From Botryllus schlosseri (taxonomy: Eukaryota), in NCBI GenBank assembly GCA_051294905.1, contig CM119372.1, positions 30,754,001-30,818,000 of the forward strand: 64,000 nucleotides of DNA. Direction: 5' to 3'. How positions within the stretch are numbered: the first letter of the stretch is position 1; each line of letters opens with the position of its first letter. Under the pieces are notes generated by a model. The model searched no databases. It saw only the letters and a list, made by a program, of their open reading frames with translations, and was not told the origin of the DNA. Shown here piece by piece: positions 3,937 to 64,000 of the stretch. The translations under genes and the position numbers were made by a program.

Positions 3937-4564
3937 GGTTACGTAGGAATCAATAGCCAGCGAGGAAAGACTTAGAACACGATCGGTCATTTGTCGCGAC
4001 TCAACTATGACGTCTTTAAGTAGAATCCTGTGAGCGATCCCTATACCTGTAACGTTATCATGTTGCGTCTATATCAGCTACGTCACCGTGTCACCGCATC
4101 CTTAAGAATAACGATATATCATTGTCGCATTCACCGTAAACGTTGGGATTACTTCAAATTGGTCATATATAATATTTTTGAATATAATACTAAGTAATGG
4201 CGTCACTGTTTACTATACTTGATATTCAACACATCTTCACCAGAGATCCCTATACCCGAAACGTTATCAGGTAGGTCATCGGCACAACGTACACCTGGAA
4301 GAGTGGTATCACCGACGAGACGGCAGGTCATCAGCGATAGGGGTCTGAAAGGGTACCATCACCAATACGAGTTTTCACGGCACATCACCGACGCAGCCTA
4401 TACCCGAAAGGGTACCATCACCAGAGATCCCATAAGAACATATGGCACCTCACCAGCGGAAGGGGGGGTCAAAAGGGTGCCATCACCAACACGAGTTTCG
4501 CGGCACCTCACCAGCGGGCCCATAAGAACCCCATAGCCGTTCGCGACCGATCTTTACTACTACT
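3937..4564. repeat. ~620-bp unit, copy 1; candidate Polinton/Maverick terminal repeat
   Basis: Near-identical to 9809-10424. Internal subrepeats (gaaagggtaccatcacca, ggcacctcaccagcgg, cccataagaac). Ends in ACTACTACT (AGTAGTAGT on the minus strand). The repeat is certain; the family call is tentative. Confidence 0.6.
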
Positions 4565-6646
4565 TACGTTATCCAAGAACTTGCTTTGATTAAAATATAA
4601 CAATTCGACAATTTGCACCTTACGCTAACAGATCTACGGAAAGTTTAACAATTAAATAACATGCCTCCTCTTTACGTCGCCTAGAGGACAAGGTGGGTGT
4701 CTAATTTAAAGACTAATCCAAATCGTTTCGGCACCTTCCTATCTTTGCATTGTATCGCAACCTCGTGGTGTATTGATTAGATAAAAATTTAATAATAAAG
4801 TGAACTGAACACCACTTGACCAATGATTTTCAACCATAAGAAGATCCACTTATGTGACTTCTATTTTGTGATTCAGCGCTCTTGTTTGGGGGTTGTCACA
4901 ACGGTAGGATGTCCCGCTTTATAATGTAGTTTGACTGTAGTTTTTTACAATTTACCCTTTCTGTCGCAACCACGTATCCTAGTTGAATAGGTGGTCGTTT
5001 TTACAAAAGTTTCACGTTATAAAGCTGAATGAGGAAAATGATTATTTAATCACCAATCTGTGGCATTTACTTCAAGGTGTAATGTTTGCTTGAACATTGT
5101 CGAGTTTATACTTAACACATTATTTACTTCACACATTACTTCAACACCCTGTGAAAGAATATCGTTTCCATTGATCCATTTCATTTCTTTTCATTCCTGT
5201 AGCGTAGTGATTCTTAAACGCTGCTGGGTCGCAGCCAAAACACTGGTTGCGAAGATTTTGGAAATGGGTGGCGACATCTAAAATCTGACACATTGTCTAT
5301 TCCAGGTGTGGGCAACCTGTCGACGAAGAAGGAAATTTGTGCGACCGTGACACGTAATTCAATTAGTATGTGTTGGCGGCCGTCGACAGGCTAATTGAAT
5401 TTGCGATTTGACTCCTGAATTTTTGAGAGATTTTAATTAAACTTGAAATTTTCTTCGCGCTATGCGCGATTCAATGCCATACTTCATTTTTCGTTCTTAT
5501 GTGGTAGCGCCCTTTGCGATCTGCGCCCCACAGCACAGATGCGAACAGCAGGGGGAAATGCTTCTAATCCACATATAGAAATACCAACTTGTAATCGTGT
5601 GCTTCTCACGTAAGAAATTTGTTTCTGGTACGTCTAGGACAGTGGTTCTCAACCATTTTGCCTTCGCGGACCCCTTTTGAACCATCACGGACCCCCAACG
5701 TTTTAGTTCAAATTTAGCTCAATTAACGTGCAACCGTCATCTGTCTTCTGCAACTAGTAACTGTAGGCTAGTGATAAACGGCAGCAAAATGTATTTTCTT
5801 GAAAATAACATCATACTATTTATGCATAATTTTGATAGACTTTTATTTGAAAGCGATTTCTGTAGCAGCATTTCTTGAAAAACGTGATCGTATCTCGAAA
5901 ATACGCGCCTGCGATTTGATATGAACGAGTGCCGAGAATCCATTTCCGCAAATATAGATGACGGTGACTCTAATAACACGTAATGCTTCCGACGAGACAT
6001 TTGGGTGTAATCGCAACATACATGGCACAAAAATTGAGAAACATATTTTTAATGAACATATAACGTCCAGCCTAGTTATTTCTATCAAGCAGCTAATTTT
6101 TAAGGTATTCCGGAATACTGGTGATGTATATATCACAGGGGAAAAGAGGTATTTGCAAACGTTTCGAAATCACCCTGATTGACAGGCACTGCTCCGAAGT
6201 TTTTATTCTTCTACACACCCCTACAAAACGCCTAATCTGTCGATGTGAGTCTCAAAGTTTTAGCAGCGATGAAGCGAAACTGCCTCTTTATTTCCATAAT
6301 TTAAAGCAGTGTTTCTCAACCCCGAGGCCGCGGACTCAAATGAGTCCGCGGAAGGACATGGATGAGTCCGCGAGCACAGGGATTTTCGGTAAATTAATCG
6401 ACGCACACGTTGACAAATTATCAACCCTCATGTTTTTCAATGGAAAAGCGGAAGTCTCATTTTGAATGTGTTATATTAGATGATTTTATATTGATAAAAC
6501 CTTACCAAACGATCATAGATCTTAATTTGGAGGTCAACGGACATAGTTTTAGCTTGAGCATGTCGAAAATCCTTTAAAAATATCGAAATTTACAGTTTTT
6601 TCGTCAATTTCCGATATGATTTCGGAATATGTAATTGACGGACCTA

Positions 6647-6728: not shown

Positions 6729-7913
6729 TACTGGTCCGGGTTCGTCAAATTCAGATTTGAGACTTGGGCTTCAACCTTGATGGGTGATTCGCAAAATACA
6801 ACTCTTGAACTGTTAGTCACCTCAATAGCTGTCATATAAAATACAAAGATACCCAAATATGTGACTAGCGGTACTGAGCTTGAATAGTGCTTCCAGGACT
6901 ATATTCATTGAAGTAGAATTTATTACCTCGAAGACTTTTCGCGTTCCCCTTATCAAGAGATATACAATAAGAAGGAGAAAGAGTTTGTCTACAATCGTTA
7001 TATAAGTATGCCATAAATATATACCGCTAATTGTCTGTGTAACGTCTTCTGTGTATTGTATAATTTTATTTTCTCTTGTCCCTTTATTAGACTACCACTA
7101 CCGGTACAGGTGACTTTGGCGAGCTAGCGTTCCTTTTTATTATTACATTGTTACGTCATATTTTGCCAATTTGGTTTTCGTTAGAACCTATTTCTGTATG
7201 TAGGCTATATGCTTCTTGTACCGTTAACTCTTGATGAGGGTCATACGAAATGCCTTCAAGTTAATAAATTATACTACAATGAATGTAGTTTGGAAAGCAA
7301 TATCAGAGATACCTCAATAAGCGATGTTCGCCACGTATATTTCAAACGCAAGAACAACGAAACAGAAAGCTCTACAACAAATTGTTCAACATTCCAAGCA
7401 ATATTCGTTCTCCTGAAATGTTCTGTGTCTTGGGCAATCCAGTTGGTTGCAAGTATCACAGGCAAGACGGGTATGCTTTGCACATCTGTAGCATCTTCCT
7501 GGCTTGATACCAAATATTTCAGGTATGCCTATAAACCCTTATTATCGCCAACTGGAATTTTTCAAAATGCCCTACATTTATGCCCGAGGTAGCCCATTGG
7601 TAAAATTGTCATAACCAATTCTATCCTGGTTATAAATGTACAATTTTGGTCTGATTGACTTGAATTTGGTACGCTTGGATGCGGAATTTGACGCTGAGTA
7701 TTCACATACCGAAAATGCCAGGTATAAACCCCTATGACAGCTCTTTATACACACTTATGCACGCGTTTTCGGCGCGATATACGCTGAGTGTTATTGTATT
7801 TATTGCGACTTATGATCCACTTGTAGACGTTATTTGGATATTGATAAATCGTAGGGACATGTTCTCATCACAGAAACAATCTATAGTTGTCTATTATCAG
7901 TAGAACTCGAAAT

Positions 7914-9808: not shown

Positions 9809-10424
9809 GGTTACGTAGGAATCAATAGCCAGCGAGGAAAGACTTAGAACACGATCGGTCATTTGTCGCGACTCAACTATGACGTCTTTAAGTAGAATCC
9901 TGTGAGCGATCCCTATACCTGTAACGTTATCATGTTGCGTCTATATCAGCTACGTCACCGTGTCACCGCATCCTTAAGAATAACGATATATCATTGTCGC
10001 ATTCACCGTAAACGTTGGGATTACTTCAAATTGGTCATATATAATATTTATGAATATATTACTAAGTAATGGCGTCACTGTTTACTATACTTGATATTCA
10101 ACACCACCCTATACCCGTAACGTTATCAGGTAGGTCATCGGCACAACGTATACCTGGAAGAGTGGTATCACCGACGAGACGGCAGGTCATCACCGATAGG
10201 GGGTCTGAAAGGGTACCATCACCAATACGAGTTTTCACGGCACATCACCGACGCAGCCTATACCCGAAAGGGTACCATCACCAGAGATCCCATAAGAACA
10301 CATGGCACCTCACCAGCGGAAGGGGGGGTCAAAAGGGTGCCATCACCAACACGAGTTTCGCGGCACCTCACCAGCGGGCCCATAAGAACCCCATAGCCGT
10401 TCGCGACCGATCTATACTACTACT
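9809..10424. repeat. ~620-bp unit, copy 2 (direct repeat of 3937-4564)
   Basis: Same start (ggttacgtaggaatcaatagccagcg) and end (gttcgcgaccgatctatactactact). Differs by a few substitutions and a short indel near 10103. Confidence 0.85.
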
Positions 10425-10879
10425 AACGTATTCCGGGGACCAAATAGATAGATAAGAATGTCATAGTTTTCTGGAATAAATGGGAAAAGTGGATGAGTTA
10501 AAACAGGTCCAATTTGTCCATGTATATTTCGTATCATCAAATACCAAGCAGATAGCCAGCAGAGGGCAAGAATGAGCTGCAACTCCTAGATTTATGTTTT
10601 GAAGCCATGTGACAGCCCAAGATTGAGCGTCATGATTAGGGTCATTTAAAGTCATTACAGTCGTATTATTTCTATGCATAAGTCGTGAAATCAATTTTAA
10701 CGCAAAACCGCATCCCTATGAGGTATATTAAGAAAGTTATAAAGTCATATAAAGTCATGTTATCCTGGTTAGGCCTTTTAAGTTGTATAGTCATATTTTT
10801 GAGTTATAAAGTCATATCGTTGTATACTTTGACTGAAAAATACCAATTTAACCGGTGAAGCAGTTAAGCACTAAGAAAG

Positions 10880-11261
10880 TAAGGCAGTTACTCATTGGCG
10901 TAGCTGGTTGAATTCTGCTCAATATGACGCCGAGAGACCTCCACAAGTTAAAGAAATACTCAATGCATAGGAATGTGAAGGAGTTATTGTAAAGATCATT
11001 AAAAAAAACGACCTAAAGTTGACTAATCAGTTGACAAAAATATGTTTCCACAATATTTCAAACTTAATACTCAAAATAGAAAGTTGTACATACATCATCA
11101 AAGAGGCCCATGCTTTACTAAATGCCCTTGATTTCGGAAAAGATCCGCTTGAGCTCAAAAATTACATTAAGAAGCGATTGGACAGAAAAGATGTGGAACA
11201 AATTATGGAGCAACAAAAACAAGACAATTTACCAGCGCTTTATGCAAAACTGCAGAATTGA
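10880..11261 (+). pseudogene. Possible death-effector-domain (DED)-like gene relic
   Basis: RQLLIGVAG*ILLNMTPRDLHKLKKY... then, in another frame, ...IKEAHALLNALD...LKNYIKKRLDRKDVEQIM. Resembles DED N-terminal helices and the terminal RxD(L/V) motif. Contains a stop and a frameshift. Judged by eye only. Confidence 0.3.
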
Positions 11262-11585
11262 ATAGTATATTCATACTGAAATGAAACCCGAATATTTTCG
11301 GCTGACACTCGTCAGGGGTAATCGTCAGCAACTAGTAGAGAATAAGAAAGAACATTGTATATCAACACTCGTATCACAAAATATGACGTCACCAGCATGA
11401 AACTTCGAATGAGAGAGCGTTCAGTGCACTATTCCCAGGTGGTACATGAACTCCTTCTATTGACAGAGTTTCGGTTGGTTTATTTTGATAAAAGTCGACT
11501 CCAAGGCACACAAGTGGAAGTATGAACGGCCCCTCCCAATAACACGACATTTTTCATCTCTATTAATATTCGCACAATTATTCAC
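11256..11585 (-). mobile_element. Penelope-like element 3' fragment (GIY-YIG ORF end, pLTR and hammerhead motif)
   Basis: Minus strand 11585-11421 translates VNNCANINRDEKCRVIGRGRSYFHLCALESTFIKINQPKLCQ*KEFMYHLGIVH*, like the C-terminus of Penelope-like RT/GIY-YIG proteins (FHLxxLExxxIxxxxPxLCxQKE). Followed by a hammerhead motif at 11319-11286. Confidence 0.8.
11286..11319 (-). ncRNA. Minimal type I hammerhead ribozyme motif
   Basis: ACCC-CUGACGA-GUGUCAGCC-GAAA-AUAU-UC-GGGU on the minus strand. Confidence 0.75.
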
Positions 11586-15369: not shown

Positions 15370-16097
15370 CAGAGTTGTAATGGCTCGAGTTATGACTCGA
15401 CTCGAGTCACGATTTGGTGACTCGACTTGACTCGAGTCATTTTTTCCAATGCGTAAGATAACTCGACTCGAGTCAATTTTTGTATGACTCGACTTGTACT
15501 GGAGTCATTGTGCATGACTCAAAACTAGGACGGCCAAGTCAGACATTTCATTATAACATAGAAGAATAGTAAAGTTACCACATTATTGGTATTTCTTCTA
15601 TCAGCCCTGATACTTGAAAATAGGGCCAGAAACTGTTAGAACTGAGGAAAATTACTATGATTACTATGTTTTAATAAAGAGCTTCTTGGAGATACAGAAC
15701 TTTAATATACAATTGAATATTATGTTCATGTTGAAATAAACCCGAATATTTTCGACTGACACTCGTCAGGGGTAATTCTCTACTAGTTGATGACGATGAA
15801 TATACTATTTAATTGTATATCTAATGAATGCGAGCCATTCTATGTCTTTCGAGCAGAGTTGAAAAAGGTGTATTGAACGAATTGAATTGGAAACTGAACA
15901 CTGAACAGTGAACATAATGACTTGGACTCGGACTATAGTCAAAATACGATGATGACTTGGTCTCGACCCTATACTAGCTTACTTGGACTCGGACTTGACT
16001 CGGTGGTGAATTGAAAATGACTCGAGTTGACTCGAGTCAAAATTATAAAAGTGAGATTTAGTTGTGACTCGGACCTTGTGACTTAGTTACAAGCCTG
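15370..16097. mobile_element. hAT-like MITE with GACTCGAGTC arrays (same family as 50880-51421, opposite orientation)
   Basis: Termini cagagttgtaa / ttacaagcctg; dense gactcg/cgagtc repeats at both ends; homologous to 50880-51421; TSD degraded. Confidence 0.8.
15677..15820 (-). mobile_element. Penelope-like pLTR fragment with hammerhead motif (15773-15740)
   Basis: aacccgaatattttcgactgacactcgtcaggggtaat, plus a short inverted tail (gaatatactatttaattgtatat). Inserted inside the 15370 MITE. Confidence 0.75.
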
Positions 16098-19000: not shown

Positions 19001-19740
19001 ATTTCTGGACTAAGAGGTATATACCATTTGACCGGCATGGAATACACAGCAATTATGCGCTGTTCGTGATGGTTAAATCTTTTACTAGTGACTATGTCGT
19101 GTATGTGCTGTGTGGGCCAATGTTTTCCTGTCCACGCTGTCCCGCAGTGCCTAATGCCTACTTGTCTAGTCATATAACGCGTTTTATATTTTGGCTGCGT
19201 TACAATGCATCTACTAGTACGACGGCGTCACGCCTTTGTAGATTTTTTTGTTCACTTAAAGTCGCACGCAAGATTATGTTTCTTGTTGAGTATCTCTTGC
19301 ATTATCTACATACATAGTGCCAAGTTTAATCCTTATTGGGGTGGATCAGTTAGGCACTTAGCATTTGAGTAATACTAACTCTTTTATCTAAACTGTCAGC
19401 GCGGAAAATATCTCGTCGAACCGCGACACGATAAAACATGCATGGTTACTTGGTTATTGCGTGTATATCACCGCATTTATGTAACCAAAGGCTGATAAGA
19501 CGGCCGTCGGTCGAATGTAATAACTACATCCCGAGATTGTAATATGAACGGAGAACGGCCATCCTGAATGCATACAGAAATAATATTATCCTCACAGAAT
19601 TTTCTGGCATTTAGTTCAACTGCCAAAGACTTTCACCGCATTTACAGCAGCCGATGGGATCTGATCTTTGGCGCGTCACAATTTACTTGGTTTTGCTTGT
19701 TATTCGATAAAAATTAAATAGTATATTCATATTGAAATGA

Positions 19741-19774
19741 ACCAGAATATTTTCGGCTGACACTCGTCAGGGGT
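19741..19774 (-). ncRNA. Minimal hammerhead motif (one stem I mismatch)
   Basis: Reverse complement reads ACCC-CUGACGA-GUGUCAGCC-GAAA-AUAU-UC-UGGU. Confidence 0.65.
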
Positions 19775-20017
19775 AATCGTCAGCAACTAGTAGAGAATTG
19801 GAAAGAACATTGTATATCAACAATCGAATCACTTGGAATCAACTTTTGTCAAAATACACCAACCAAAACTCTGTCAACAAAAGGAGTGCGTGTACCACCT
19901 AAAAATAGTACATTGAACGCTCTCTCATTCGAAATTTCATGCTGGTGACATCATATTTTGTGATACGATTGCTGATAAACAATGTTCTTTCCAATTCTCT
20001 ACTAGTTGCTGACGATT

Positions 20018-20051
20018 ACCCCTGACGAGTGTCAGCCGAAAATATTCGGGT
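20018..20051 (+). ncRNA. Minimal type I hammerhead ribozyme motif
   Basis: ACCC-CUGACGA-GUGUCAGCC-GAAA-AUAU-UC-GGGU: catalytic core CUGANGA and GAAA, UH cleavage site, 4-bp stem I, palindromic AAUAUU in place of stem III. Confidence 0.8.
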
Positions 20052-23000
20052 TCATTTCAATATGAATATACTATTTAATTGTATATTGAAGTTCTGTACC
20101 TCCAAGAAGCTCTTCAATTATTCGATAACCCAAAATTCGTTATAATTACACATTACAGGTTACAGTGGACATGTTCACCTATTTCTCACATCATTACTAG
20201 CATTTACCGCTGCACTGAACCAATTGCCCACGCGAAGGATAGTGGGAGACATGTGCAATTGTGCATTTGTGCAATTTCTACCGACACTGACATTGCCTAC
20301 ACTAGTGCACAATTGATGGATAGAATAGAAGTCAGAAGTCAGAGTCAGAAGATATCAATAAGACCTCTATGATATGCAAAATTATACTAATGTATATTAT
20401 GAATAGTCTTGAAAATGAAGCGTCTCGCTGGAAAACAATAGGGCATAATTTGAAGGCAGCATTTTGGTATTATACGACACCAATGATCCGGACTGCAAGC
20501 GATCAAAAGATTTGAATCCCGCCCGTGACCAAAATTGAGTTTGACATCCCTATAGTAGGCCTATGATTAAGGTCGGCAACCTTTTTTGTTGAGTTAAAAT
20601 GAGTCAAAATGGGCATAAATGACGCTAAATAGGAAGTCCGTGGTTCGAACGATTGTGGCGACCATTTTTTATTTTTTATTTTATTTATTTTAGTCAACTC
20701 CAGTATGTTTATGTAAAAAGTGTGTAAATCAGGCGTCGAACGAAAGTGATTACCTTTTTTCTTAAGTCAACCAACCATAAAGTCGGGAAAATATACCATT
20801 TTCAAAAAGTGTCCTCATGCCGATTTCAAAATATGGTAACCCTACTGTAACACGTCTTGTCATTGCCACATTGATGGCCCGTATGATATATGCACGTTAT
20901 GGGTAAGCAACACCTTCAGTGACTTGGAGCCTCGCCACAACATCAAACATTTAGAACATTTAGAGCGTTGCGAATTGTGCGTGGTCTTATTTTTTCACAT
21001 CCGATCCGTTTTTATTACTTGCTGAGTGCGTTCGCGGGAACGATAATAAAGTAATCTGGTTTTCATATTTGGTGAGAAATAAATTCGCAGCATTGCTTGG
21101 TGGAAAGGCTCAGCGTGCATCTAACTGTTATTGTGCCATTACGTCAAGGAATAATAAGGCTAGTTGTTGGATTTGGTATAGGAAGGGGTACACTATCCTG
21201 ACTACTCCACACACATGTTTCAAATAAAGATATCAACTTGGTTAGTTTTATATTTTCATCAGTGAACTTGACTTCTATAATTCTGAACTTTCACTTAACT
21301 CCGAATAGTATATACATTTTTGCGAACCAGTAGCAAATACCTCACGGACGAGCGGTGGTCCGCGGAGCAGTGGTTGCCGACCACTGGCCTACGGTATATC
21401 GTGTCGCAGTGTAATGTATTGTCAAGTAGAATCATTTTTGTGTATATGCAATATGCAAGGTATATACGGAATGTAAAGGCGCAGTTTACTGTCTTTCAAT
21501 GCTCTTTAATGACCACTTATGCTACAAAGCGTATACTTGTCTATGTACCTGGGCGCTATTTGGCAGAACTATAAGATTAAAATATGCTAATCAGTATACG
21601 ATGGCGTAGGGCAGTAATTTCTATAGGAAAATATAAAAGATCTGGTCGGATTGCTGGTAGCCCCTGGAATTTTAAGATCTCCAAATATAACAGAGCAGAT
21701 GTGTGAGAAGTGAATTGATAAATAGCTGAATGGGCCGCGCGTTTTATAGACTGGGACTGCGTTATCTACGCAGGTGCGCCAACCAAATCTTCTCTTGCAT
21801 GTAATCCGTGATTTCCCACAGAATATAGCATACGTTTAATTTTTCTACGCGAGTGATAACTCTGTATGGTTTGCTAATTGAAGGTTTCGTTTGTTATTGG
21901 CTTTTAGTCATTTGTTAGCTTTGGATCCGCGCGCGGAGTCATGATGACGGGACATATAATGCTTTGCGATGGCGATAGCTGGTATTTGAAATATACAGGG
22001 AAGAGGACGGATATTTTATGATCGTTTCTCTCTCAAAATAGTAATGTGTGCGATGCCGACAGTAAGAATGAATAGGGCTTTTTATATGGTACAATAGGTG
22101 GCGGAAAATATATCGAAGTTAACGCTAGGATGTTGTTTCTAGTATTTCACCAATATGTGTCCACTGTCCATATCCAGCGTACGATTTGGATTGTACGTAG
22201 TTACCGCTGAATTCTTAACTGGTAGGTCTCAGGTGTAGGTAGTTTGACTTAGCGACCCAAATTCCTAATCCAATTTAATGGCTTCGACATATAGACACAA
22301 AGCCTGTTATTGGTATTCACCGCGCAAGAAAGACGGTGTGATTTATCACCATGTTAGATATCAAGTCGTTATTGCGTGATTATACCTCGTTATAACATGA
22401 TTTTACAGTATGACGTTGTTCCTAGTTAGTTAGTAGTTAGTCCTATATTGTAGTGTTCTGTTAAAAATCATGGGATATGAGGATTCTTGGAAATGCCGCT
22501 ATTGAAAGTTTACGATTCGGCGATTTATTCTACAAAGGACATTTAATGCTTATGAAATGTGCGCTGTCCACGATATAGATACCAATCATCAGAATTATGT
22601 AAGCGAATGCACACTTCCCGTAATGATGAATAGGTTTACATCTTACCAGACGGCTCCCCAACAACACATGATTTATGTCTGAGCAAACTACGATGTTGGT
22701 GCATTTGTCTTGTGATACCATAATTTGAGGTTGAGCGGAGTGCAAGCGGAGTTTCTGAAATCTCTCAACCCTCAATGCTGTTCGGGCAGAGGCGTGAATG
22801 AGGTATTGAAAAATAGAATATGGAGATGTTACCTCGGTTCGGAAGTGTGGTGTTCGCAACCATATTAGGATTCTTCGATTCGAGCGATTTTGGAAAGTCC
22901 AGACTTCGATTTGGTTCGGGCATAATACCTACTAGATTCTACATCTCAGCTAGAATACTACGCTTCACTCCGAAACGGTATTAGAGTATTGGGATTTTAA

Positions 23001-35700: not shown

Positions 35701-36670
35701 GCGTCAGGGATATATTTACTTATCTACAGTAGGCTGTTGCGGCGGTATCGCCGTGCTGTGTGTTGTCATCCGGGCTGTAATAACACTTTGTCAGGCCCCT
35801 CCAAAACACTTTTCTTGGATACTCCATGTTGTGATTAACACACCTTCTCAGAGACTTCGCCATTTATGTCGTTTATGGATAATACATATATGTGTGCAAT
35901 GTGCATCGATATATTGTTCCGCCCCCGAGACTTCACTTCACTTCACATCATTGAGGTCAAGTCAGTCAAGTTCATATGGCACCACAAACTATAGGGCAAA
36001 TTGTTATTGATTGTCGATTGTAAGTCGTATTAATCTGCCCCAAAGTACCCTATTTTATATTCATCCACAAAATATTGAAATAATTTTTAGCCCTCTTCGA
36101 GCTTGCCCCCTAATTGGCGGGTTTATGATTTCTGGTTGTTATTTCTGACAAGGCGAGAGTTGGATTACATATTTCCAGTACAAAAAATAGTCACGTTCCG
36201 GCTTTATATATAAGCACCAACACAATGACCGCGACGCATATCTAAACGCGACTGGTGCCATGGCTGCAAATTCCCATTCTACTACCTTATTATGTCCCGT
36301 GGCGTATCATGATGTGCTGTATGACCCGTGCGGGATACGCTAGATATGTCGTCGATGGAGTGTTGACTGACGGCATTCGTCAATAACGTCCCTAACAGGT
36401 AGACGCTCTATTCCAATTTTCAACGGCCGTACGATTAACAATAAATATATAAATTATAAGCCACATGCAAACATGTCTTGAACGACGCAATGAACCTTGA
36501 CGTCTCGCTAGATCAGTTGTTCCTAAACTTTTTCACACGCGCCAATCTTATCGTTAAATCAAAGAACGATTGAAACGAACATTGGAGTTATTCCCAGTAT
36601 AACCTAATGGTTATCAAAGTCGAAACAGTTCTTAGTAGCCGATAACGCTCATATCAGATAGTATGTGGAT

Positions 36671-37317
36671 TAGGGGTCTTCAAAAATGACTTTATTTCTC
36701 AAATTGTACTGGCTACTTGATAAAATTGTTAGGTTACCTAATTCAAGCCTACACACCAAATTTGGTTCAATTCCAACCAGGAGAAGAAAGTTTCTATTTA
36801 TTATATAAAAGTAAATAACAAAAAATTTGAAAATTTTCTGATCACTCCATGAAAGTGTTAGGTTGTCTATATGAACGATGTTCAACAAATTTGGTTCAAT
36901 TCCAACTAGTGGAAGCGGAGTTATTGCCGTCGAAAAATTTGGATTTGAATAAAATAGTATTTACGGTGGGCACCACTATAATAAATAATTAAAGAATTGA
37001 TCACCGTAAATACTATTTTATTCATAATCCGAATTGTTCGACGGCAGTAACTCCGCTTCCACTGGTTGGAATTGAACCAAATTTGGTGAACATCGTTCCT
37101 ATAGACAACCTAACACTTTCATGGGGTGAACAGAAAATTTTCAATTTTTTGGTATTTATTTTTATATAATAAATAGAAACTTTCTTCTCCTGTAGCAATG
37201 CGGCTACTGGTTGGAATTGAACCAAATTTGGTGTGTAGGCTTAAATTAGGTAACCTAACATTTTTATCAAGTAGCCATTACGATTTGAGAAAAAAAAGTC
37301 ATTATTGAAGACCCCTA
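36671..37317. mobile_element. Foldback MITE (~300-bp arms) with 8-bp TSD
   Basis: taggggtcttcaaaaatgac... / ...gtcattattgaagaccccta; arms pair almost to the centre (~33-bp spacer near 36970-37001); exact TSD ATGTGGAT. Confidence 0.92.
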
Positions 37318-37533
37318 ATGTGGATATACGTTCAGTTAATACAGGCTTGATGCTAAGTTTAAGCATTTATTAGCGAACGCAGAAAGCCTTTTTCACATGG
37401 CGTCCAGTAAGACGATTTTTATTCCACCACGCATGTGCTGAAAAGTATTGAGTCTTCGTCTGCATTATCATTTTAGCTAGTTTCTTGAAATAAGGGAAAG
37501 TTTCCTCGGATTACTAGCTAGCAGTATTGACTT

Positions 37534-37746
37534 CATTGAATAGTATATTCATATCGAAATGAACCCGAATGTTTTCGGCTGACACTCGTCAGCAAGTGTT
37601 GGATAATTAACAATGTTCTTTCCAATTCACTACTAGTTGCTGACAATTAGGCTACCCCTGACGAGTGTCAACCGAAAATATTCGGGCTCATTTCAATATC
37701 AATATTAACGGTATATTGTAGCTCTGTACCTTCAAGCAGCTCCTCA
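37534..37746 (+). mobile_element. Very short Penelope-like inverted insertion with 11-bp TSD
   Basis: Inverted pLTR pieces; truncated hammerhead on minus (37592-37563) and full core on plus (37654-37687); flanked by AGTATTGACTT at 37523-37533 and 37747-37757. Confidence 0.8.
37654..37687 (+). ncRNA. Minimal hammerhead motif
   Basis: ACCC-CUGACGA-GUGUCAACC-GAAA-AUAU-UC-GGGC. Confidence 0.7.
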
Positions 37747-37759
37747 AGTATTGACTTAA

Positions 37760-38249
37760 AGGGGCACTGCGCTCTAAAAATGATGTGGTCTCAAATTGAA
37801 GGTAAAAACGAACAAAAATGTTTGGCCTCAGCCATTTCCTTCAGAACGCCACCGTAATGGAGCTGCAATTTATTGAAATTTCTACAAGACCAGCTGCCGC
37901 GGCTGCTTAACCCGTTACATGGCGCGATGTCTTCATCGTCGCACTTGCTCGACGCGATAAGGCAGTCACGCAGAGAACGAAACTTAGACACATTTCCTTC
38001 ATAACATCGGCTGACAACTATCTAAAATTCGTTCTCTGCGTGACTGCCTAATCGCGTCGAGCAAGTGCGACGGTGAAGATATCGTGTCATGTAACGGGTT
38101 AAGCAGCCGCGGCAGCTGGTCTTGTAGAAATTTCAATAAATTGCAGCTCCATTACGGTGGCGTTCTGAAGGAAATAGCTGCGGCCAAACATTTTTGTTCG
38201 TTTTTACCTTCAATTTGAGACCACATCATTTTTAGAGCGCAGTGCCCCT
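37760..38249. mobile_element. TTAA-flanked foldback MITE (Kolobok-like), 490 bp
   Basis: ttaa|aggggcactgcgctctaaaaatgatgtgg ... ccacatcatttttagagcgcagtgcccct|ttaa; ~220-bp near-perfect arms. AG...CT termini with a TTAA TSD fit Kolobok better than piggyBac (CCY termini). Confidence 0.85.
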
Positions 38250-40048
38250 TTAAGTACGATAGGCTACTTTTGACTTGCCTCCAAATGCGCTGCTTCTTTA
38301 GGAGTGACATACGACATAACATGTCCTATTAGCTGAGCATACCAGGAGTGGATACTTTGACGCTGTAAAGTACTCGGATTTAATGCGTTGTTGATTAGAT
38401 TGACAAGGGTTGTTATGTATTAGATATGAAGTGGTTGAAATACTTGATTACACCGTCACTTTGAGTCTTCCTACCCTGGTGAACCACGCGATAATTTCAA
38501 CTCAGAGGTATTTTATTGTTGGTCCGTACTCCAGTATACCAGGCGATACGCACAAGAAACGCCTTCTTTCATCAACAATAAGTACATACCAACGATGGCA
38601 TGCATTTTGAAAGGCACGGCATGCCGACAAGATGCCGTTGATAGATTGGACACGACTTGTTACTCGACGCCGCAATCGCAGACGAGCAAATGGAAACATT
38701 TTCCAACACAATCCCGACAGTTCAAAGATTAAAATCTTCATTAAACGTGAACCATGTCGAACCCTATTGAAAGGCCCCACAGGTAGCTCACTTTGCAACG
38801 TCAAGTCTGACGCGTGTGACGTGTTTGGCCTGTCGCTCGCGCACGCAGTCATCGGCAGTTCTGCGAAGTGCGAACTTGGCGTGATACGGTGTCTGTTCTC
38901 GCGGTTCTTATATCAATCTGACTCGCATACTTTTCAAACTGCGAATTATAAATATTAAATAGTTTTGTCTGCCAAACTTCTCGAATAGAAGTAAAAGGGG
39001 TCTTAAGTCATAGGCCATAGTCACTTCACTAAGAATAGTTTAAGAACTGAACAGATTGCTGTTGTGGTGATGTTTGCATCTTCTGTATTTTACCTTCACT
39101 AATTCAATAGCGCAGCAGTAAGAATTTGCTAATGAAAGGGCTTGAAATTGATATGTGTCGCATTTAAAAATTTTCCGTAGTAGTCTGGCTTGAGTGGACC
39201 TGGACAGCTGAAGTCACAGTATTTGGGATTTGCGGTAACCAATAAAATGCGTCACGATTGACGCTGCACCAGGATTCATTTTACAGCTTCTAGACGCATT
39301 ACCAGGTATGTAACAAGCCCGTGAATCGGTGTGCACGGCGTGAGCTGAGCTCAGATCACATGCGCCCAGGTTTTTGTCATCCACGTTTCCAGACCCACAG
39401 GAGTAGAAACTTTAGATTCTGTTCATTGTGCATGTTTTCACGACTAGTAAGAACTTGACAGGTCGTATACACTATACAGTCATAAAACCTCTTTCGCGAA
39501 GTGATAATATCGTCCATCAGTACCAAGTATAGATAAGGACGCGATATGCTAGACAGCTCGAGCGGGAGGCTGATATCCACAAATTTTAAGACACGTGGAC
39601 AAGATTTTCCTAATGCCCGGGTATTTTATTTCAAGTAACTGAAACGGTGATATCGCCAATGTTTCTGACGTGTTAGTGTGGAATTGGAATTGGTAGATTT
39701 CGAATATGGTTAGTTGGTAACCGATATATGTGTGATTGTGATACCACCTTAACAGCGCTGTTTGATCGAGATCATTACATTTTTTTCGGGCCTGATTTGA
39801 CGAATTTTGAGCAAATCGCCTCATCGTTGTTGGTTTGCGCAGAATTATGCCGCTGTAGTCACCTAAATTTTGAGAATCTGATTGGAAATGCTGATACCCT
39901 GCGTAGCGACGGTATGCAATGTAAAACTCTCAGTCGGTCTTTACTGGTTTCCCTGCCTTGTGGCTTGTCCTTTCGATAAAATACGCATTATAGCCTTCTC
40001 GCGTTGCTGAGCCGGAATGCATAAAACAAATATCTACCAAATGGTATT

Positions 40049-45890: not shown

Positions 45891-46505
45891 CCTTAAATAC
45901 TTGTTTGATCGACATAATCGAATATTTATATGTTTACTTTATACTTTACCTGTTTTAGCATAATCTTCGACTAAAAAGGCGCCAGCGACTATTTCCATTA
46001 CAGTTTGTCGGCAGTAACGGACGGAACGTTATGGAGACTGCGGGCGTAATTTGCAAACTGTTTAAAATCACGCAGGGCGATGTCGCTCAGTCATCATTTC
46101 CAACGTATACAGAATTTTAAAACAATACGCGTCGCTACGCTTTGTCGCCAAGGTCCACAATTATCGTAACGCTGCGAAAATATTTGTCGATAAAATCTCA
46201 ACAGTGCTCCTCCCATTGTGACAGAAATAACTTACAGATTCGATAACCGATTCGATAACCTACTTTAATCCGGCGGGGATAGTGTACTCCAATATTTCGA
46301 GTGCGCTTGCGGTCCCACTCAAGATCGGCAAGCAAGAATCGGACGCCGCTATTAGTGGATTATTCATAAACGATAAGAGGCTATTGCTGTCTGCGACGGC
46401 ATATTGTCGTGAAGCACTTCTTTACCGTGAAGCGTAGGATATAAGACCCCGAATGTAGTGGTTCCAACGTCTGATATGATGACGAAAAGTCTACGGAGGA
46501 CCACA

Positions 46506-46872
46506 ATGAAGCATGTAGTCATATTCACACTTTTGATAAACGTTTACGGAGCTAAAGCATCCAAGAGACAACGCCGCCAACATCACGTCGAGTCTGCAGG
46601 TTTGCCGAAGATGAAACCTCCGGACATCCCTGGCTACGCGGATTTCGCCAGCCCGGATGAGTGTCAGCGTATACACGTGGGTCTCTGCAAGAACATCGGA
46701 TATAACATGACGAAGATGCCGAACCAGCTCGGTCACAACTCGCAGAGGGAGGCGGAAATGACGTTGGGATCGTTCCAACCGCTCATACAGTACGGGTGCC
46801 ACCGGAATCTCACTTTTTTCCTTTGCACCGTGTATTTTCCGATGTGTGACCCGTCAGTTGCATACCCTATCG
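46506..46872 (+). CDS. FZD4: Frizzled-4-like receptor, coding exon 1 (signal peptide and first half of CRD)
   Basis: MKHVVIFTLLINVYGAKA signal peptide, then CQRIHVGLCKNIGYNMTKMPNQLGHNSQREAEMTLGSFQPLIQYGC...FFLCTVYFPMC, a Frizzled CRD closest to the FZD4 pattern (GYNxTKMPN, PLIQYGC). Donor G|gtgagt at 46873 (phase 1). Alternative in-frame ATGs at 46476/46479. Confidence 0.92.
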
Positions 46873-48440
46873 GTGAGTATTTTGTCAACATTTTAGAGCC
46901 GAATCCGGGCCAGGATGCAAGATTTGAATTCAATCAATTACCATCATGTATTGTCCGGATCAAAATAGATATCCTGTACTAGGGATATAGAATCGCAGCT
47001 GATTCGAATCAGACACTGGTACTTGCTAACAAATCGAATGTCCGCTTCTGAAATTTGCAGAAAGCTATCTCGCATTAGATATTACTGAATGGTCAAATTC
47101 CCATTTCCATTATCATTATCAAGCCATGGGATCTGTGACTATTATATGGGTTTTGTTATTGTTATTGTTGCTAAGTGTAGGCCTACATTTCTTACGGTAT
47201 GCATAACGCGCATATCCAAGAGTAATTATAGAAGCAGAATTCAGTACGATTCCATTCACTATGTTCTCAGTAAACTAAATTTGCTATCGTTGATTAGCTG
47301 AAAACTGCCTTTCAGGTAAGGCTGGTAAACGCATTACCAGCAATCAGGAGTTTCCAAATTCGGAACTGAATTCTTTCAACAATCATCACGATTACGTATA
47401 GTAACGGTTCGACTGCCACGAGACATGAAGATGGCAGTAAATACCAATACCGTATTATCATATACCAAACTCACATTTGCAAAAATTTTCTGTAATGCAA
47501 ATATTTCTCCCTTTAAGGTAGATATTATGGGTCGCAACACAAACATGGTTCGCGAAGAGTATAATTTTGACCCGCGACAGCACCTGAGTTAACTTTTGCG
47601 GATGGTGCTCAAAAAGGTTGAAAAGCACTGATACAATGATAAGACGATTAATCAACTTTCGGGAGTTGGCTTCGAGGGGCCCTTATTAATGTTACTAATA
47701 CGTTTTTTGAAGAATGTTCTTAATTTGTGAAATTCAGGACAGATTGTCGCTGATATTGGTATATCGAACACACTCATACACCAGACCAAACTCCAAATTC
47801 GCATTTCTTCACGGGGCGCATTATTTTACGATGCGGGTGGCATTTGCACCGCGAGGCTCCGAGTGCATGGGGCACTATTGGGCACTGGCCATTTCGTCGT
47901 CTGGACATTTCAATATCGAAGGTTTTAACCGAAATGCGGACGTCATTTGGGTCAAGGTTTTATAGCCGCCTATCTTATTCTGTAGCACGCATCGTGGAGT
48001 CGCACGCCGGCCGAAACTTTATGTCTTGACGTGTCTGTCCTTCGGTGAAGATGGCCGACGCTGAAATGCCGGTTCTTGAGAATGTCCCGCACCAGCAGAT
48101 TGCACGGTGCACGCCCCTAGATTAATGCTTCCCATGGGTGTCAAACGGCCTCAAAGCTATACTGATAGGAACTCACCGTTCTTTCGTAATTTTGAATACA
48201 ATTAAAAGCTCATTTCTGTAAAGTATCCTTATTTTTTTAAAACTTTTGGGAAGGCGAGCGTACTCATATTATTAACAAGAAATATAGTGACATTCAATCG
48301 CGCGAATTGCGAAGTAAATTTGCTAGTGGAATATATCTGTCCTAAAATATATCTACTATATGTTGATTTACGAAATAAGTACGAGCCCCTTTCGACTCCC
48401 AGCTAATTGGGAGGTTTGGGGAGCGGCGGTTACGGTCATG

Positions 48441-55890: not shown

Positions 55891-57595
55891 GTGAGATTGG
55901 TTTATGTTACTTTGACGCAATGCGGGCGGCCGTTGTTGAGTTTGATATTGAGGTACCGAGAAAATCGTGTGGGGTTAAGTGCTTTACTTCCGTCGGGTTA
56001 ACACGCCGTTGATGTAAATCATTGGTTCTCAATCACCGGCCCGTCGAATCTATTGCAAATATTTATATATGAATTGCGAAAGGCAAGAAGTTGTACTCTT
56101 TTCCGTTGGTTGTAGACAAGTAAGGTCCAGTTTTAAATTGGTTTAGAAATTTAGAACTCATTTTCGACATCGTCAAGGAAATATAAAGCTCACTGTGTAC
56201 TTTGGACTAAGCTTACGCCACTGTGCTACAAGTGTTGTAAAAAACGTTTAAAGGTAGCCTAGGACCCGTTATATGTGAATGCTAGGAAGACCTTTATGTT
56301 AAATGCAGACCTTAGACTTGGCTAGGACCCAGTGAAGTAGCATTCATGTCAAATTAAACCGAAAATTCAAAATCAAGATTGTAGTGTTTAGCAGGACTTC
56401 GCCCTGCAGAAATTTCGATAGAACCGCGCATAGCATTTGTAATATCAAAAAGACTGGGTTTTGATTCTAGACAAATATATTTTAACCGTACTTCGAAAGG
56501 ATACGGTATTGTGGTTGGATTTTGACTGGCCCATGGAATTTTGATATTTTCCAATTAGCATTCGAACTCTGAGTAATGCCAAATATTTTCTTTTTTGTGC
56601 CAGGCGGGCCCGATCTCGAAAAGATGCCTCCTTGAATCCCCCGATACGATGCGATGACTTTTATGTCATAAGTCCTCCTCGATAGAAGCGAGACTGACGC
56701 GATTTAATAGGGCTTGGAAAATTCCATAGGGTCACAGAAGAATGCAACGCGATGACAATAAAACCAGTAATTCTCAAACTAGTAATGCCGATAAGGCGAT
56801 AACGGCCTGTATTACGGATACGAGATAACGTTTGGATGTTTTTATAAACAGGCAACTGTCGGACATTCGCAGCATTGCAGACAGCTGACGTATGCCAAGG
56901 TTCACGCCAATGCACAATATTTAATTATGACTTATCTTAGTTTGTTGTCGATGTTTTGACTTACGGTGCATATGTTATGGCAGTAAGCTGTAAACTGCAA
57001 ATGTATTTTGTCTCAGCAAGCGTATGCCGCATGTGAAAACAGTCCGTTGTGTGGTGAGAAGGATGGTTTTAGGCCAAATATTGTGGACAACGTTCTTAGA
57101 TTTTGTATTTATATATATATTGAACCGATTCTGCTGCGCATCATTTAGGATTAAAAAAGGTAATTGCATATTTCGTATTTTTAAATTCGATTCTGTCGTA
57201 TTTCGACTTTAATCCGAACAAATCCTGGATTTATTACCTTACGTGTCGGGCTGAGCATATGACGTCATCATGACAGTGGTAATTTTGTATTTCTGGACCA
57301 CTACTTTATTGAGTAGCGCTTTGTGACCAATTGACCATTGTGACGGTCGATCACGAATTGGAGAAATTGTTCTTCCATGAATATTAGTAACCTTGTGCCG
57401 CATGTGTCTGATTCCAGATTCATTTTCGCGAGATATTAGATCCAGTTCCTGTAAGATTCTTCAAATCTGATACTTCCAAGTTCTCCGTCGGTAGGCATAG
57501 TACGATTCCAGAATATGCGCCAACGCATTGGATCCATTGTCAGCGCGGTATTCGTATTTTGTATTTTGAATATCAGCATGTATTTTGTCTTCCAG

Positions 57596-57702
57596 GTAAA
57601 AAGTGGTCGCACGAAGCCATCGGGATATACAGTTCCTATTACCATCTGTTCGCGTGGGCTCTCCCGGCCGGTGCTACAATTGCCATTTTATTTCTTCGAC
57701 AG
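57596..57702 (+). CDS. FZD4: Frizzled-4-like, coding exon 6 (ICL2, TM4)
   Basis: Acceptor cttccag|, GKKWSHEAIGIYSSYYHLFAWALPAGATIAILFLRQ, donor cag|gtacgg. Confidence 0.93.
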
Positions 57703-58503
57703 GTACGGTTTGCGTCTCGCTCATTAACCAGTGTAAATCAATTAGTTTCAATTCGAAGTTGGGTTTTCATGTAAACTTGAGCCCTAAGTCAGCAAGCACA
57801 AGACCATGGTGCTTTACAATGTCTCTTGGCGCGAACATATGGTGGAAACTGGAAGTATTGTGATATTTTCCGATTGGTAGCAAATATAGCCACTAATGAG
57901 CCAAATGGTGAATATTAATGTCGAATTAAAATTTGGGTATCCGCCAGGCTCTTATGACGATATGATACATGCCTAGAAAATTCCTGAAATTGGAAATGTC
58001 TCTTGAACGTTGAAAATTGGATTTAGCACACCTAGGGGTCAAAAGTACTTGGATTAGATGTAGAAATGATGACGTGAAAATACTTCAGCAGCTTTATAAA
58101 GTAAACTCTACCGAGGAGTCGCACAGTTTTGGCAGTGATGTATCTTCGCGACTAATACAAATCGGTAATATCGGGGCGTGCGGTTAGATTTTCGAAAATA
58201 TACTCAATTAACGGCTTGGCGAGATACTGTGGTTTCACTCATAAAGATGGAGCTAGCTCGACCCAAAATTACTTTCTATTTTTTTGCAATCCAAACTGTA
58301 TAATTGTTAGTAGTTTTGCCTAAAATGCTTTTCGGTAGAAGTAGAAGTAGTCTAGAGACTTACCTACTCCAGGAAAAGTAAAAGTACTTCACGTCGTTAA
58401 CGACCGCCTCCGGTTAAATGTCGTCTTGCCGATACAGGATTTTCAAGTGCTTGCTTTGCGGAAATTCCACTATTCCTAGTCACGTGACTTATATTTGACG
58501 TAG

Positions 58504-62182: not shown

Positions 62183-62702
62183 GATAGATGACACCATTCA
62201 TACTTAACAACAAGCTGAGCGCGTGTTGGGCCGATACAATTACGTGTTACCTGCGATACAATGCCAAGTTCGATCTATCGTGATGTAGTCGCAAATCTCA
62301 TATCACATCGCCATTGTGAGCAGTCAATCAAACCGTTTTGGCCAATGGGAAAATACAAACCGCCTTTAATATGTGTAATTGTGTATGACTACTAATTGAC
62401 GTGAATCACTTGATTCGATTCGAGCAAGATTTCGAGTCAGTGATTCGTATATCCCATCCCTTCCTTGGATCCATGATTGTAACGCCAAAATTTGAAACTA
62501 CAATTACACAAAGCGGGGCCTACGATATCTACACACAGAAGCCTTACCGTGATGATTCAATGGCAGGTGTTATGAAAGTAACTTGATGCCTCTGACGGCT
62601 AATATTAAGGACTACCGGATTTATATATTGTCAAACTAATATCTGATTCCGGCTTCAAATTCCAGCCTCAATCCGTACTCCCATGTCTCTTCGTATCATG
62701 TC

Positions 62703-62953
62703 CAAGTGTATCAAAATACGCCAACCTAGGTTGTGTCAACAGAAGGAGCTCAACTAAAAATAGTACGTTGAGCTTTAAGCGATCTCTTCGCCACGATTAT
62801 TCGATATTTCATGCTGTTGACGTCCTATTTGGTTATACGATTGTTGATGCACAATGTTCCTTCCAATTCTCTACTAGTTGCTGACGGCTTACCCCTGCCG
62901 ATTGTCAGCTGAAATTAGTTGGGTTTATTTCAATGTTTTACAATTCAATTGTA
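62703..62953 (+). mobile_element. Old Penelope-like 3' fragment with decayed hammerhead (62891-62924)
   Basis: KCIKIRQPRLCQQKE remnant, then ttccaattctctactagttgctgacg..acccctgccgattgtcagctgaaattagttgggt (core mutated). Confidence 0.7.
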
Positions 62954-63051
62954 ATAATAAATCCAAGTGTATAACCCTTGAGCGACTGCAATTCGTCCGA
63001 CGTCACGTGGAAATTGTCAAATATTTGAAATTCTCCTTCATCTCTCTTCAG

Positions 63052-63189
63052 GTCCTACATGAAAAAGGAAGGGAGTCAAACGGACAAATTGGAGCTGCTT
63101 ATGACGAAAATCGGTGTCTTCTCAGTGTTGTACACAGTGCCCGCGTCTGTGGTCATCGGCTGCTATTTTTACGATCTAGCGCAAAAGAG
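63052..63189 (+). CDS. FZD4: Frizzled-4-like, coding exon 8 (ICL3, TM6); gene continues beyond the window
   Basis: Acceptor ctcttcag|, [46 protein letters not shown], donor ag|gtgagt. TM7 and KTxxxW are not seen in the window. Confidence 0.92.
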
Positions 63190-63525
63190 GTGAGTCAACG
63201 GGTCGCATTTTTCTGCATGTGGCTACGTACGATATCTTTTCAAAATCTGTGGTTGAAAAGAAAGAGCTTGGGAAACGGAAATGTTCAGATATGAGCGGAT
63301 TTCATATTTTCCAATCAAAATCCTATTGCACATTTGAGATTCGAATCCAAGTCCATATCCAAATACGGAAACATCGAAAATTCTGGATTTCCAAATATCG
63401 ATAGGAGCCTGTTTCGATCTTAGATGTCATCGAAACTGGATGTACACTCGTAAGCATTATTTGAAGCAATTTTGTATTTACATTCTCCTTTTCTACGAAC
63501 TTGAGTCACTGGCAAATGTGAACAT

Positions 63526-64000
63526 TAGGGCTGTTCAAAAATAACTTTTTTTCCTGAATCTTGTGGGTTACTTGATTAAATCATTAGGTTGCCTTAAAAA
63601 ATGACGCACACCAAATTCGAATTCATTACAACCAATATTCGCGGATTTCGTAGAGTTTGAAAATTTTGAATTTGCCTAAAAATGCAAAAAAATTTTTTTT
63701 TTCAATTTTCCTTCCAACCTTATGAAATTGTTGCGCTGTCTTCAAAAACGATGCACAACAAATTTGACTCAATTCCAAGCTGCAGAAGCCGAGTTATACA
63801 AGTTTTTTGATGATAATTCTGGGATGATCCATCAATCAAGGATAATCCCAGAATTATGATAGAAAAACTGGAATAACTCCACTTCTACGGCTTCGAATTG
63901 AGTCAAATTTGTTTTGCATCGTTTTTGAAGACAGCGCAACAATTTCATGGGGTTGGCAGAAAAATTTGAAAAATTTTTTTTTTGCATTTTTAGGCAAATT
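63526..64000. mobile_element. Foldback MITE (TAGGG end), right arm truncated by the window edge
   Basis: Symmetry centre ~63833 (ataattctgggatgatcc atcaatcaa ggataatcccagaattat); 63666-63828 mirrors 63840-64000. Motifs resemble the 36671 element. Confidence 0.85.

Follow-up and report, generated by a model that had tools for sequence, protein, structure and literature searches.

Short-stem-III variants of the hammerhead ribozyme in Penelope-like elements are said to have been described by Lunse et al. Hammerheads in these elements have been on record since 2014, as have their palindromic stem III and their thousands of truncated copies, and dimers of them showed low but detectable cleavage (Cervera and De la Pena, PMC4209133). 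In the Penelope-like element of the anole, mutations of the ribozyme left insertion in vitro unaffected (PMC11167929). Hammerheads whose stem II is reduced to one pair have been described together with a pseudoknot. Activity has been shown for the pseudoknot (PK) hammerhead of PDB 8YDC, in which stem II is one pair and the pseudoknot 6 bp (Zhan et al. 2024, PMC11300833), and in a type II hammerhead from a metagenome a one-pair stem II is rescued by a 6-bp pseudoknot, with compensatory rescue (Perreault et al. 2011, PMC3088659). The panels of the latter paper that relate stem length to the pseudoknot excluded repetitive type I hammerheads. Statements on these and the other cited papers refer to the parts of them drawn on here. 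In those parts (PMC6765202, PMC7229834, PMC10085705, PMC5737381 and a 2026 retrozyme preprint included), the combination of a Penelope-like element with a pseudoknot is not described; Lunse et al. or a 2015 paper from the Breaker laboratory may contain it.

The motif analysed here shares with the minimal hammerheads of PMC4209133 its type I permutation, its place in the pseudo-LTR, a short stem I, the G10.1–C11.1 pair and the core CUGANGA/GAAA/UH, as well as a palindrome where stem III would be, single copies of truncated elements in the thousands and a U3–A8 exchange in sister families. It differs in stem II: in all 56 motifs of Fig. S3 of that paper stem II comprises several pairs, and most of them have an additional base following A9, whereas here there is one pair and no extra base. 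In addition, no pseudoknot is described for those motifs in the parts drawn on, whereas loop II is predicted here to form one of 6 bp. Both the element and the ribozyme are thus of a known kind, and the variant build may be undescribed.

Hammerhead motifs in the window

The window is the whole 64,000-nucleotide stretch of DNA that was analysed. A preliminary description had reported seven copies of a 34-nt motif in it, which are all present with the letters and at the places given there. Searching the 64-kb window with the 34-mer returned five matches at up to two mismatches, compared with a chance expectation of 0.00 from 100 shuffles of the window:

11286 (−), no mismatch
15740 (−), one mismatch
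19741 (−), one mismatch
20018 (+), no mismatch
37654 (+), two mismatches

The truncated copy lies on the minus strand with its core starting at 37592, lacks the 5′ strand of stem I and has AACATT as its palindrome. The decayed copy at 62891 (+) has the core CTGCCGA. We also recovered the core, the 4-bp stem I, the single G10.1–C11.1 pair and AATATT at 20041–20046, and because C17 is 20047, the sequence agrees with the earlier prediction of a cut after that nucleotide. The site with the copy at 20018 is made up as follows:

19700–19710 (+), left target-site duplication, 11 bp (TTATTCGATAA)
19711–19832 (−), second copy of the same insertion, inverted and 5′-truncated
19833–19916 (+), end of the endonuclease domain, last 27 codons and stop (residues 822–848, 93% identity)
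20008–20013 (+), pseudoknot 5′ strand GCTGAC, predicted to pair with loop II at 20031–20036
20018–20021 (+), stem I 5′ strand, sequence ACCC
20022–20028 (+), hammerhead core C3–A9, CTGACGA
20029–20037 (+), one-pair stem II (G10.1 at 20029, C11.1 at 20037) with a 7-nt loop
20031–20036 (+), pseudoknot 3′ strand GTCAGC inside loop II
20038–20047 (+), G12–A15.1, AATATT (20041–20046) replacing stem III, and U16.1–C17, with a predicted cut 3′ of 20047
20048–20051 (+), stem I 3′ strand, sequence GGGT
20062–20117 (+), start of the element open reading frame (MNILFNCILKFC...) up to the 3′ end of the insertion (tblastn, residues 1–20, 95% identity)
20118–20128 (+), right target-site duplication, 11 bp

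The 3′ untranslated region of the element comes after the stop codon and reaches 20007 (+), and the ATG of the open reading frame lies 14 nt past the predicted cut. The inverted motif at 19741–19774 (−) has a mismatch at the stem I pair adjoining the cut site. Further insertions in the window are:

11256–11577 (−), 5′-truncated insertion with endonuclease residues 798–848, an intact motif at 11286–11319 and its pseudoknot partner
15677–15820 (−), short composite insertion; motif 15740–15773 lacks the pseudoknot 5′ strand and has a changed loop II
37534–37746 (both strands), head-to-head insertion with 11-bp duplications at 37523 and 37747
62712–62961 (+), old decayed insertion (76% identity) with 11-bp duplications at 62701 and 62962; motif from 62891 with a mutated core
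6868–7302 (both strands), fragment of a sister Penelope-like family, arranged as an inverted pair

The head-to-head insertion at 37534–37746 carries the truncated motif at 37563–37592 (−) and one at 37654–37687 (+), the latter with a 5-nt insertion, one broken pseudoknot pair and a change in stem I. The sister-family fragment adds two further, decayed motifs at 7211–7265 (+) and 6922–6972 (−), and the degenerate sister version to which the former belongs is repeated many times in the genome. Clear 11-bp target-site duplications were found at three of the six window insertions examined, a 7-bp match at one and none at two. All three clear duplications (19700/20118, 37523/37747 and 62701/62962) are exactly 11 bp long and AT-rich.

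The seven copies amount to only five insertions, as two of these are head-to-head pairs, each within one 11-bp target-site duplication. The five copies that had been called complete are all there, but only those at 11286 (−) and 20018 (+) are intact once the pseudoknot is counted. The four substitutions among these five copies are non-compensatory, and three of them break predicted pairs of the pseudoknot or of stem I. These two are the only fully preserved motifs of the seven in the window, and within their own insertions both lack a partner on the same strand. Genome-wide, a pattern of the core plus GAAAATATTC gave 6,451 matches and its reversed control gave one; the loose pattern CTGANGA..GAAA is expected to occur by chance about four times per window. 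An Rfam scan returned no hammerhead family in the window (E ≤ 5) or in six loci (E ≤ 10).

The window also holds exons of a Frizzled gene on the plus strand, at 46431–46982 and 57412–57774 (Pfam Fz and Frizzled) and, by eye, at about 63060–63190; this third exon is closely preceded by the decayed copy at 62891, in sense orientation. The Frizzled exons mark the host as an animal. Fold-back palindromic repeats that resemble MITEs, 85–93% self-complementary, occupy 36669–37319, 37754–38255 and 63524–64000, and a 630-bp direct repeat with 96.5% identity and internal short repeats is found at 3937–4569 and 9809–10429.

The carrier resembles an autonomous Penelope-like retrotransposon

At locus L031, head-to-tail units of 2,692 bp are 100% identical over 4,054 bp. 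Each unit contains an open frame of 860 codons from stop to stop, or 848 amino acids from the first methionine, with the motif directly before the start. The element protein contains Pfam RVT_1 (E 7.8e-9), and scoring of 8,000 candidates yielded 3,263 homologues. When the protein was aligned with six relatives, the KPDKG (DKG) and YVDD motifs were invariant in all seven proteins, as was a C-terminal endonuclease pattern, C-x-C/YVG/H/H/E, at Y727, C731, C733, Y737–G739, H752, H791 and E823. A direct Pfam scan of the element protein did not list the endonuclease domain at E ≤ 0.1; two of the aligned homologues carry PF01541, which we take to be GIY-YIG. The alignment contains no CX2-5CxxC zinc-finger linker between the reverse transcriptase and the endonuclease, a linker that marks Neptune and Nematis (PMC8557442). 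By the domain criteria of that paper, the sequence points to an EN+ Penelope-like element of the Penelope/Poseidon type.

The arrangement of the copies is that of such elements, with tandem units and a pseudo-LTR, an inverted 5′-truncated partner and a tail of 30–40 bp. Thirty close copies share a common 3′ end and have staggered 5′ ends. Among 24 adjacent motif pairs in the fetched loci, 19 were head-to-head and 5 direct, and only two (135 and 212 bp) were direct repeats close together. When projected onto the window, the 3′ ends of 103 distinct copies fall into two clusters, at 20078–20090 and 20111–20123, about 35 nt apart, matching the 30–40-bp tail that has been described for Penelope-like elements together with two starts of reverse transcription (PMC8557442; PMC11167929). 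A non-LTR retrozyme, in which non-coding units of a few hundred bases, each with its own hammerhead, are repeated in tandem, was rejected, as the unit is 2,692 bp long with an open reading frame and close direct pairs are so few.

Another element of similar build is the Anolis Poseidon element PAc (Frangieh et al. 2024, PMC11167929), which has tandem units, a reverse transcriptase with a C-terminal GIY-YIG domain and a hammerhead at the junction of pseudo-LTR and open reading frame, and for which two 3′ end points downstream of the cut and no RNA-seq ends at the cut are likewise reported. The cut in PAc lies 26 nt inside the open reading frame, whereas here it is predicted 3–52 nt before the first ATG in eight of eight aligned motifs.

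The preliminary description had assigned the motifs to a host-specific family on tiny Penelope-like elements. The carriers are Penelope-like, but the short copies are the truncated 3′ ends of an autonomous 2,692-bp element that encodes an 848-residue protein with reverse transcriptase and endonuclease; since they are collinear with the end of this unit, the seven motifs represent truncated insertions rather than tiny elements. The host-specific label fits the letters only, as related elements on three metagenome contigs share the build. Searches for relatives in prokaryote genomes returned one 515-bp reverse transcriptase fragment with no motif region, and those in viral contigs returned none. 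At least four Penelope-like families with open reading frames are present (contigs C1, C6, C11 and C13), several of them in tandem arrays of two or three units, which suggests that several families were recently active at once. Taken together, the window motif is probably the hammerhead that a Penelope-like retrotransposon, autonomous and recently active, carries in its pseudo-LTR; the window itself holds only truncated 3′ ends of insertions.

The hammerhead core and a palindromic stem III are kept across families

Eight motifs were aligned that had been located through protein homology and not through RNA. Three come from metagenome contigs matched with the endonuclease domain; the others come from stretches upstream of open reading frames in four families of the same genome, reached through a distant homologue, plus the window copy. 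Twelve of 13 such stretches from the same genome hold a motif, and the remaining one (L081) is 5′-truncated and has no motif region. From these 13 we aligned L072, L073, L075 and L080, with the family of the window element (family A) represented by the window copy, and left out near-duplicates of the same family, L081 and L074, a copy with a stop in which U16.1 is changed. L078 has an intact open reading frame and one broken pseudoknot pair.

G5, A6, A9, G10.1, C11.1 and G12–A15.2 were invariant in the eight motifs. In two sister families the C3–G8 pair is exchanged for U3–A8, an exchange already reported for Schistosoma (PMC4209133), and position 7 is C, A or U among sister families. The core had been called an uncommon variant, a description that does not hold: position 7 varies between sister families, and C7 is present in 6 of the 56 motifs in Fig. 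S3 of PMC4209133. The A15.2–U16.2 pair, which gives UUH, is uncommon among the motifs of that figure. One sister family with an intact open reading frame (L075, G000:C2:18277530-18277930) has the core UCGAUAA, which combines U3–A8 with a C at position 4, a rarer deviation.

Stem I, 4 bp in the window motif, measures 2–8 bp in the other seven. The stem III region is fully self-complementary in five of the eight motifs, while in the remaining three this holds for 6 of 8 or 6 of 7 positions; the letters of the palindrome differ between motifs (AATATT, AAGCTT, AACGTT and three near-palindromes) while self-complementarity is kept. These findings support the earlier reading of the motif as a minimal type I hammerhead of a Penelope-like element whose palindromic stem III suggests dimers. 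At L069, positions 296–340, between the predicted cut and the ATG, resemble a histone 3′ stem-loop (33.1 bits; gathering score 34). This likeness may be due to chance; the sequence accounts for the longer, 52-nt leader of that locus.

Loop II is predicted to form a pseudoknot

The main structural point, which was absent from the preliminary description, is that loop II appears to form six base pairs with a hexamer upstream of stem I. GTCAGC in loop II (20031–20036) is the exact complement of GCTGAC at 20008–20013. In all eight motifs, stem II is a single G–C pair with a 7-nt loop and no extra base after A9, the complementary hexamer stops 8 nt short of position 3 (9 nt in one motif), and six of six pseudoknot pairs are Watson–Crick. 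All 56 cells were paired, with 13 cells changed on both sides, and four of the six pairs show two-sided changes. Pairing the strands of different families with one another retained only 2–5 of the 6 pairs, and slid registers were 20–43% paired. None of 500 shuffles reached the score of the pseudoknot, a count that is not to be read as a probability because the eight motifs are related and represent only about six families.

Further compensated pairs were seen by eye among the first 100 listed of 2,157 sister-family matches (ACTGAC/GTCAGT, ACTGGC/GCCAGT and TCTGGC/GCCAGA), and another, GCTGGC/GCCAGC, in L006. A very common sister family among the same first 100 keeps five of six pairs. In viral contigs, 0 of 54 core-like matches reached five of six pairs in the pseudoknot register. 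These comparisons of sequence provide strong support, through covariation, for the predicted pseudoknot. Two additional features were rejected as conserved: a helix IV, whose five flanking pairs occur in one of eight motifs (one or two pairs in the other seven, with no A-rich linker), and a switch hairpin between the core and loop II, which is in the lowest-energy fold of the window family but not in the U3–A8 families.

The predicted build resembles the PK hammerhead 8YDC in its stem II of G10.1–C11.1, its 6-bp pseudoknot from the loop to the 5′ part and its core (PMC11300833). In 8YDC a 5-bp helix IV, connected to helix I through an A-rich triplex linker, contributes its loop as the 5′ strand of the pseudoknot, whereas here there is no conserved helix IV, the 5′ strand stops 8–9 nt short of C3, and a dimer palindrome takes the place of stem III. 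A one-pair stem II and a 6-bp pseudoknot are also common to the hammerhead of Perreault et al. (PMC3088659), which, unlike the present one, is a microbial type II permutation that does not need to dimerise.

Transcripts, folding and decay of the dispersed copies

RNA ends at the predicted cut were sought in four raw RNA runs from two studies (3–6% of each read, from libraries ill-suited to such ends), and none of the four showed a pile-up of read starts or ends, at that site or at any other place. RNA reads are concentrated on the pseudo-LTR, on both strands; 64–97% of them continue into unlike sequence, and the body of the open reading frame is barely covered. They look like fragments of the pseudo-LTR within host transcripts. 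An RNA joint, 6990->4300, was rejected as a sign of a circle because it is merely the continuation of the tandem unit. Inserted copies extend 30–75 nt beyond the predicted cut, suggesting that the template for reverse transcription was uncut or had been religated.

The window family monomer has its lowest predicted energy, −12.2 kcal/mol, as three hairpins that are inactive; at −1.6 kcal/mol, the duplex of the palindrome is weaker than an inactive register (−2.8 kcal/mol). One possible consequence is that a protein chaperone is needed, as for the anole element (PMC11167929).

Decay was measured on 4,474 copies that had been picked by their flanks only; the per-position conservation table of the loci was not used as a test because those loci had been chosen by identity or by an intact core. 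The six core positions were kept in 3,652 of the 4,474 copies (at least one was lost in 822), compared with 3,372 for six control positions. The proposal that the core is more conserved than the rest of the copies therefore passes weakly, but the difference is small, and one of the control positions often differs in RNA reads, which points to near-neutral decay. A degenerate version with two changes on the core side and a broken pseudoknot pair made up 14 of the first 100 matches listed. The informative conservation is that between families and not among copies, and the single dispersed copies of the window are mostly decaying passengers, ordinary transposon debris.

Discussion

We have established the element unit, the location of the motif immediately before its start codon, a stem II reduced to one pair and a 6-bp pseudoknot whose pairs covary. 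By analogy with PMC11300833 and PMC3088659, the pseudoknot may take over the job of stem II, holding stem II beside stem I. A loop of 2 nt is too short for stem III to close within one motif, so the palindromes of two motifs would have to pair with each other, and stem III would form only between two motifs, as in the transcript of a tandem array (compare PMC4209133). In the transcript of a head-to-tail array, successive motifs would be cut 3′ of UUC, probably aided by the element's own protein. Cutting would release unit-length RNA with a 5′-OH 14 nt before the AUG, and because the predicted cut precedes the first ATG, the cut RNA would keep the whole open reading frame, uncapped. Hammerheads of viral 5′ UTRs have been tied to translation (PMC13725137). 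Single dispersed copies such as those in the window would lack a partner on the same strand.

It is also possible, although we think it unlikely, that the fold is real and selected while cutting is slow or dispensable, the structure acting mainly in protein binding or as a signal for translation where the open reading frame begins, or simply riding along with the element. The missing pile-up of read ends, the templates that run beyond the cut and the amplification of degenerate families would all be expected in this case; moreover, the anole element inserts in vitro without need of cleavage (PMC11167929) and Naiad elements thrive without canonical hammerheads (PMC8557442). However, families with only about 50–60% protein identity have kept the catalytic nucleotides and the pair between positions 3 and 8, for which a hairpin that served only for binding would have no need. 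The idea of host-specific, tiny non-autonomous elements, similar to retrozymes or SINEs, in which each dispersed copy is a working ribozyme, has been largely refuted and we consider it very improbable. Most copies are indeed short (58–322 bp of element in the window) and they number in the thousands, but every copy is collinear with the end of the autonomous unit; truncation at the 5′ end varies, and there is no short unit of fixed length. The scarcity of close direct pairs (2 of 24) also argues against it, as do the five of seven window copies that are broken and the near-neutral decay. That the likeness to a hammerhead is an accident of sequence in a transposon UTR is hardly credible: the negative Rfam scan and the frequent chance occurrence of the loose pattern would fit it, but not the same position and core, the covariation in the core, the covarying pseudoknot and the palindromes of differing letters in eight of eight motifs.

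The reading that we favour, a hammerhead in the pseudo-LTR of an autonomous retrotransposon, bears on the role of hammerheads in Penelope-like elements, of which those that have been tested are slow and one was not needed for insertion in vitro. In 2 M NaCl the crystallised PK hammerhead reached a cleavage rate of 16 per minute (PMC11300833), so greater robustness is predicted for a version whose pseudoknot covaries. With intact open reading frames and identical tandem arrays in the family, the function of the hammerhead is directly testable. In addition, the pseudoknot build escapes Rfam and probably also descriptors that demand a stem II of several pairs; such motifs are therefore likely to be undercounted.

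More speculatively, and with a low probability in our estimate, there may be a clade of animal Penelope-like elements with a hybrid ribozyme, in which a fast fold of the pseudoknot type is gated by dimerisation. Tandem transcripts would be cut to unit RNAs with the whole open reading frame behind an uncapped leader of 3–52 nt, these RNAs would close into circles, and rolling-circle reverse transcription of them with internal priming would give both the 100% identical multi-unit arrays and the 3′ ends 30–75 nt past the cut. If true, this would be the first clear function for hammerheads in Penelope-like elements.
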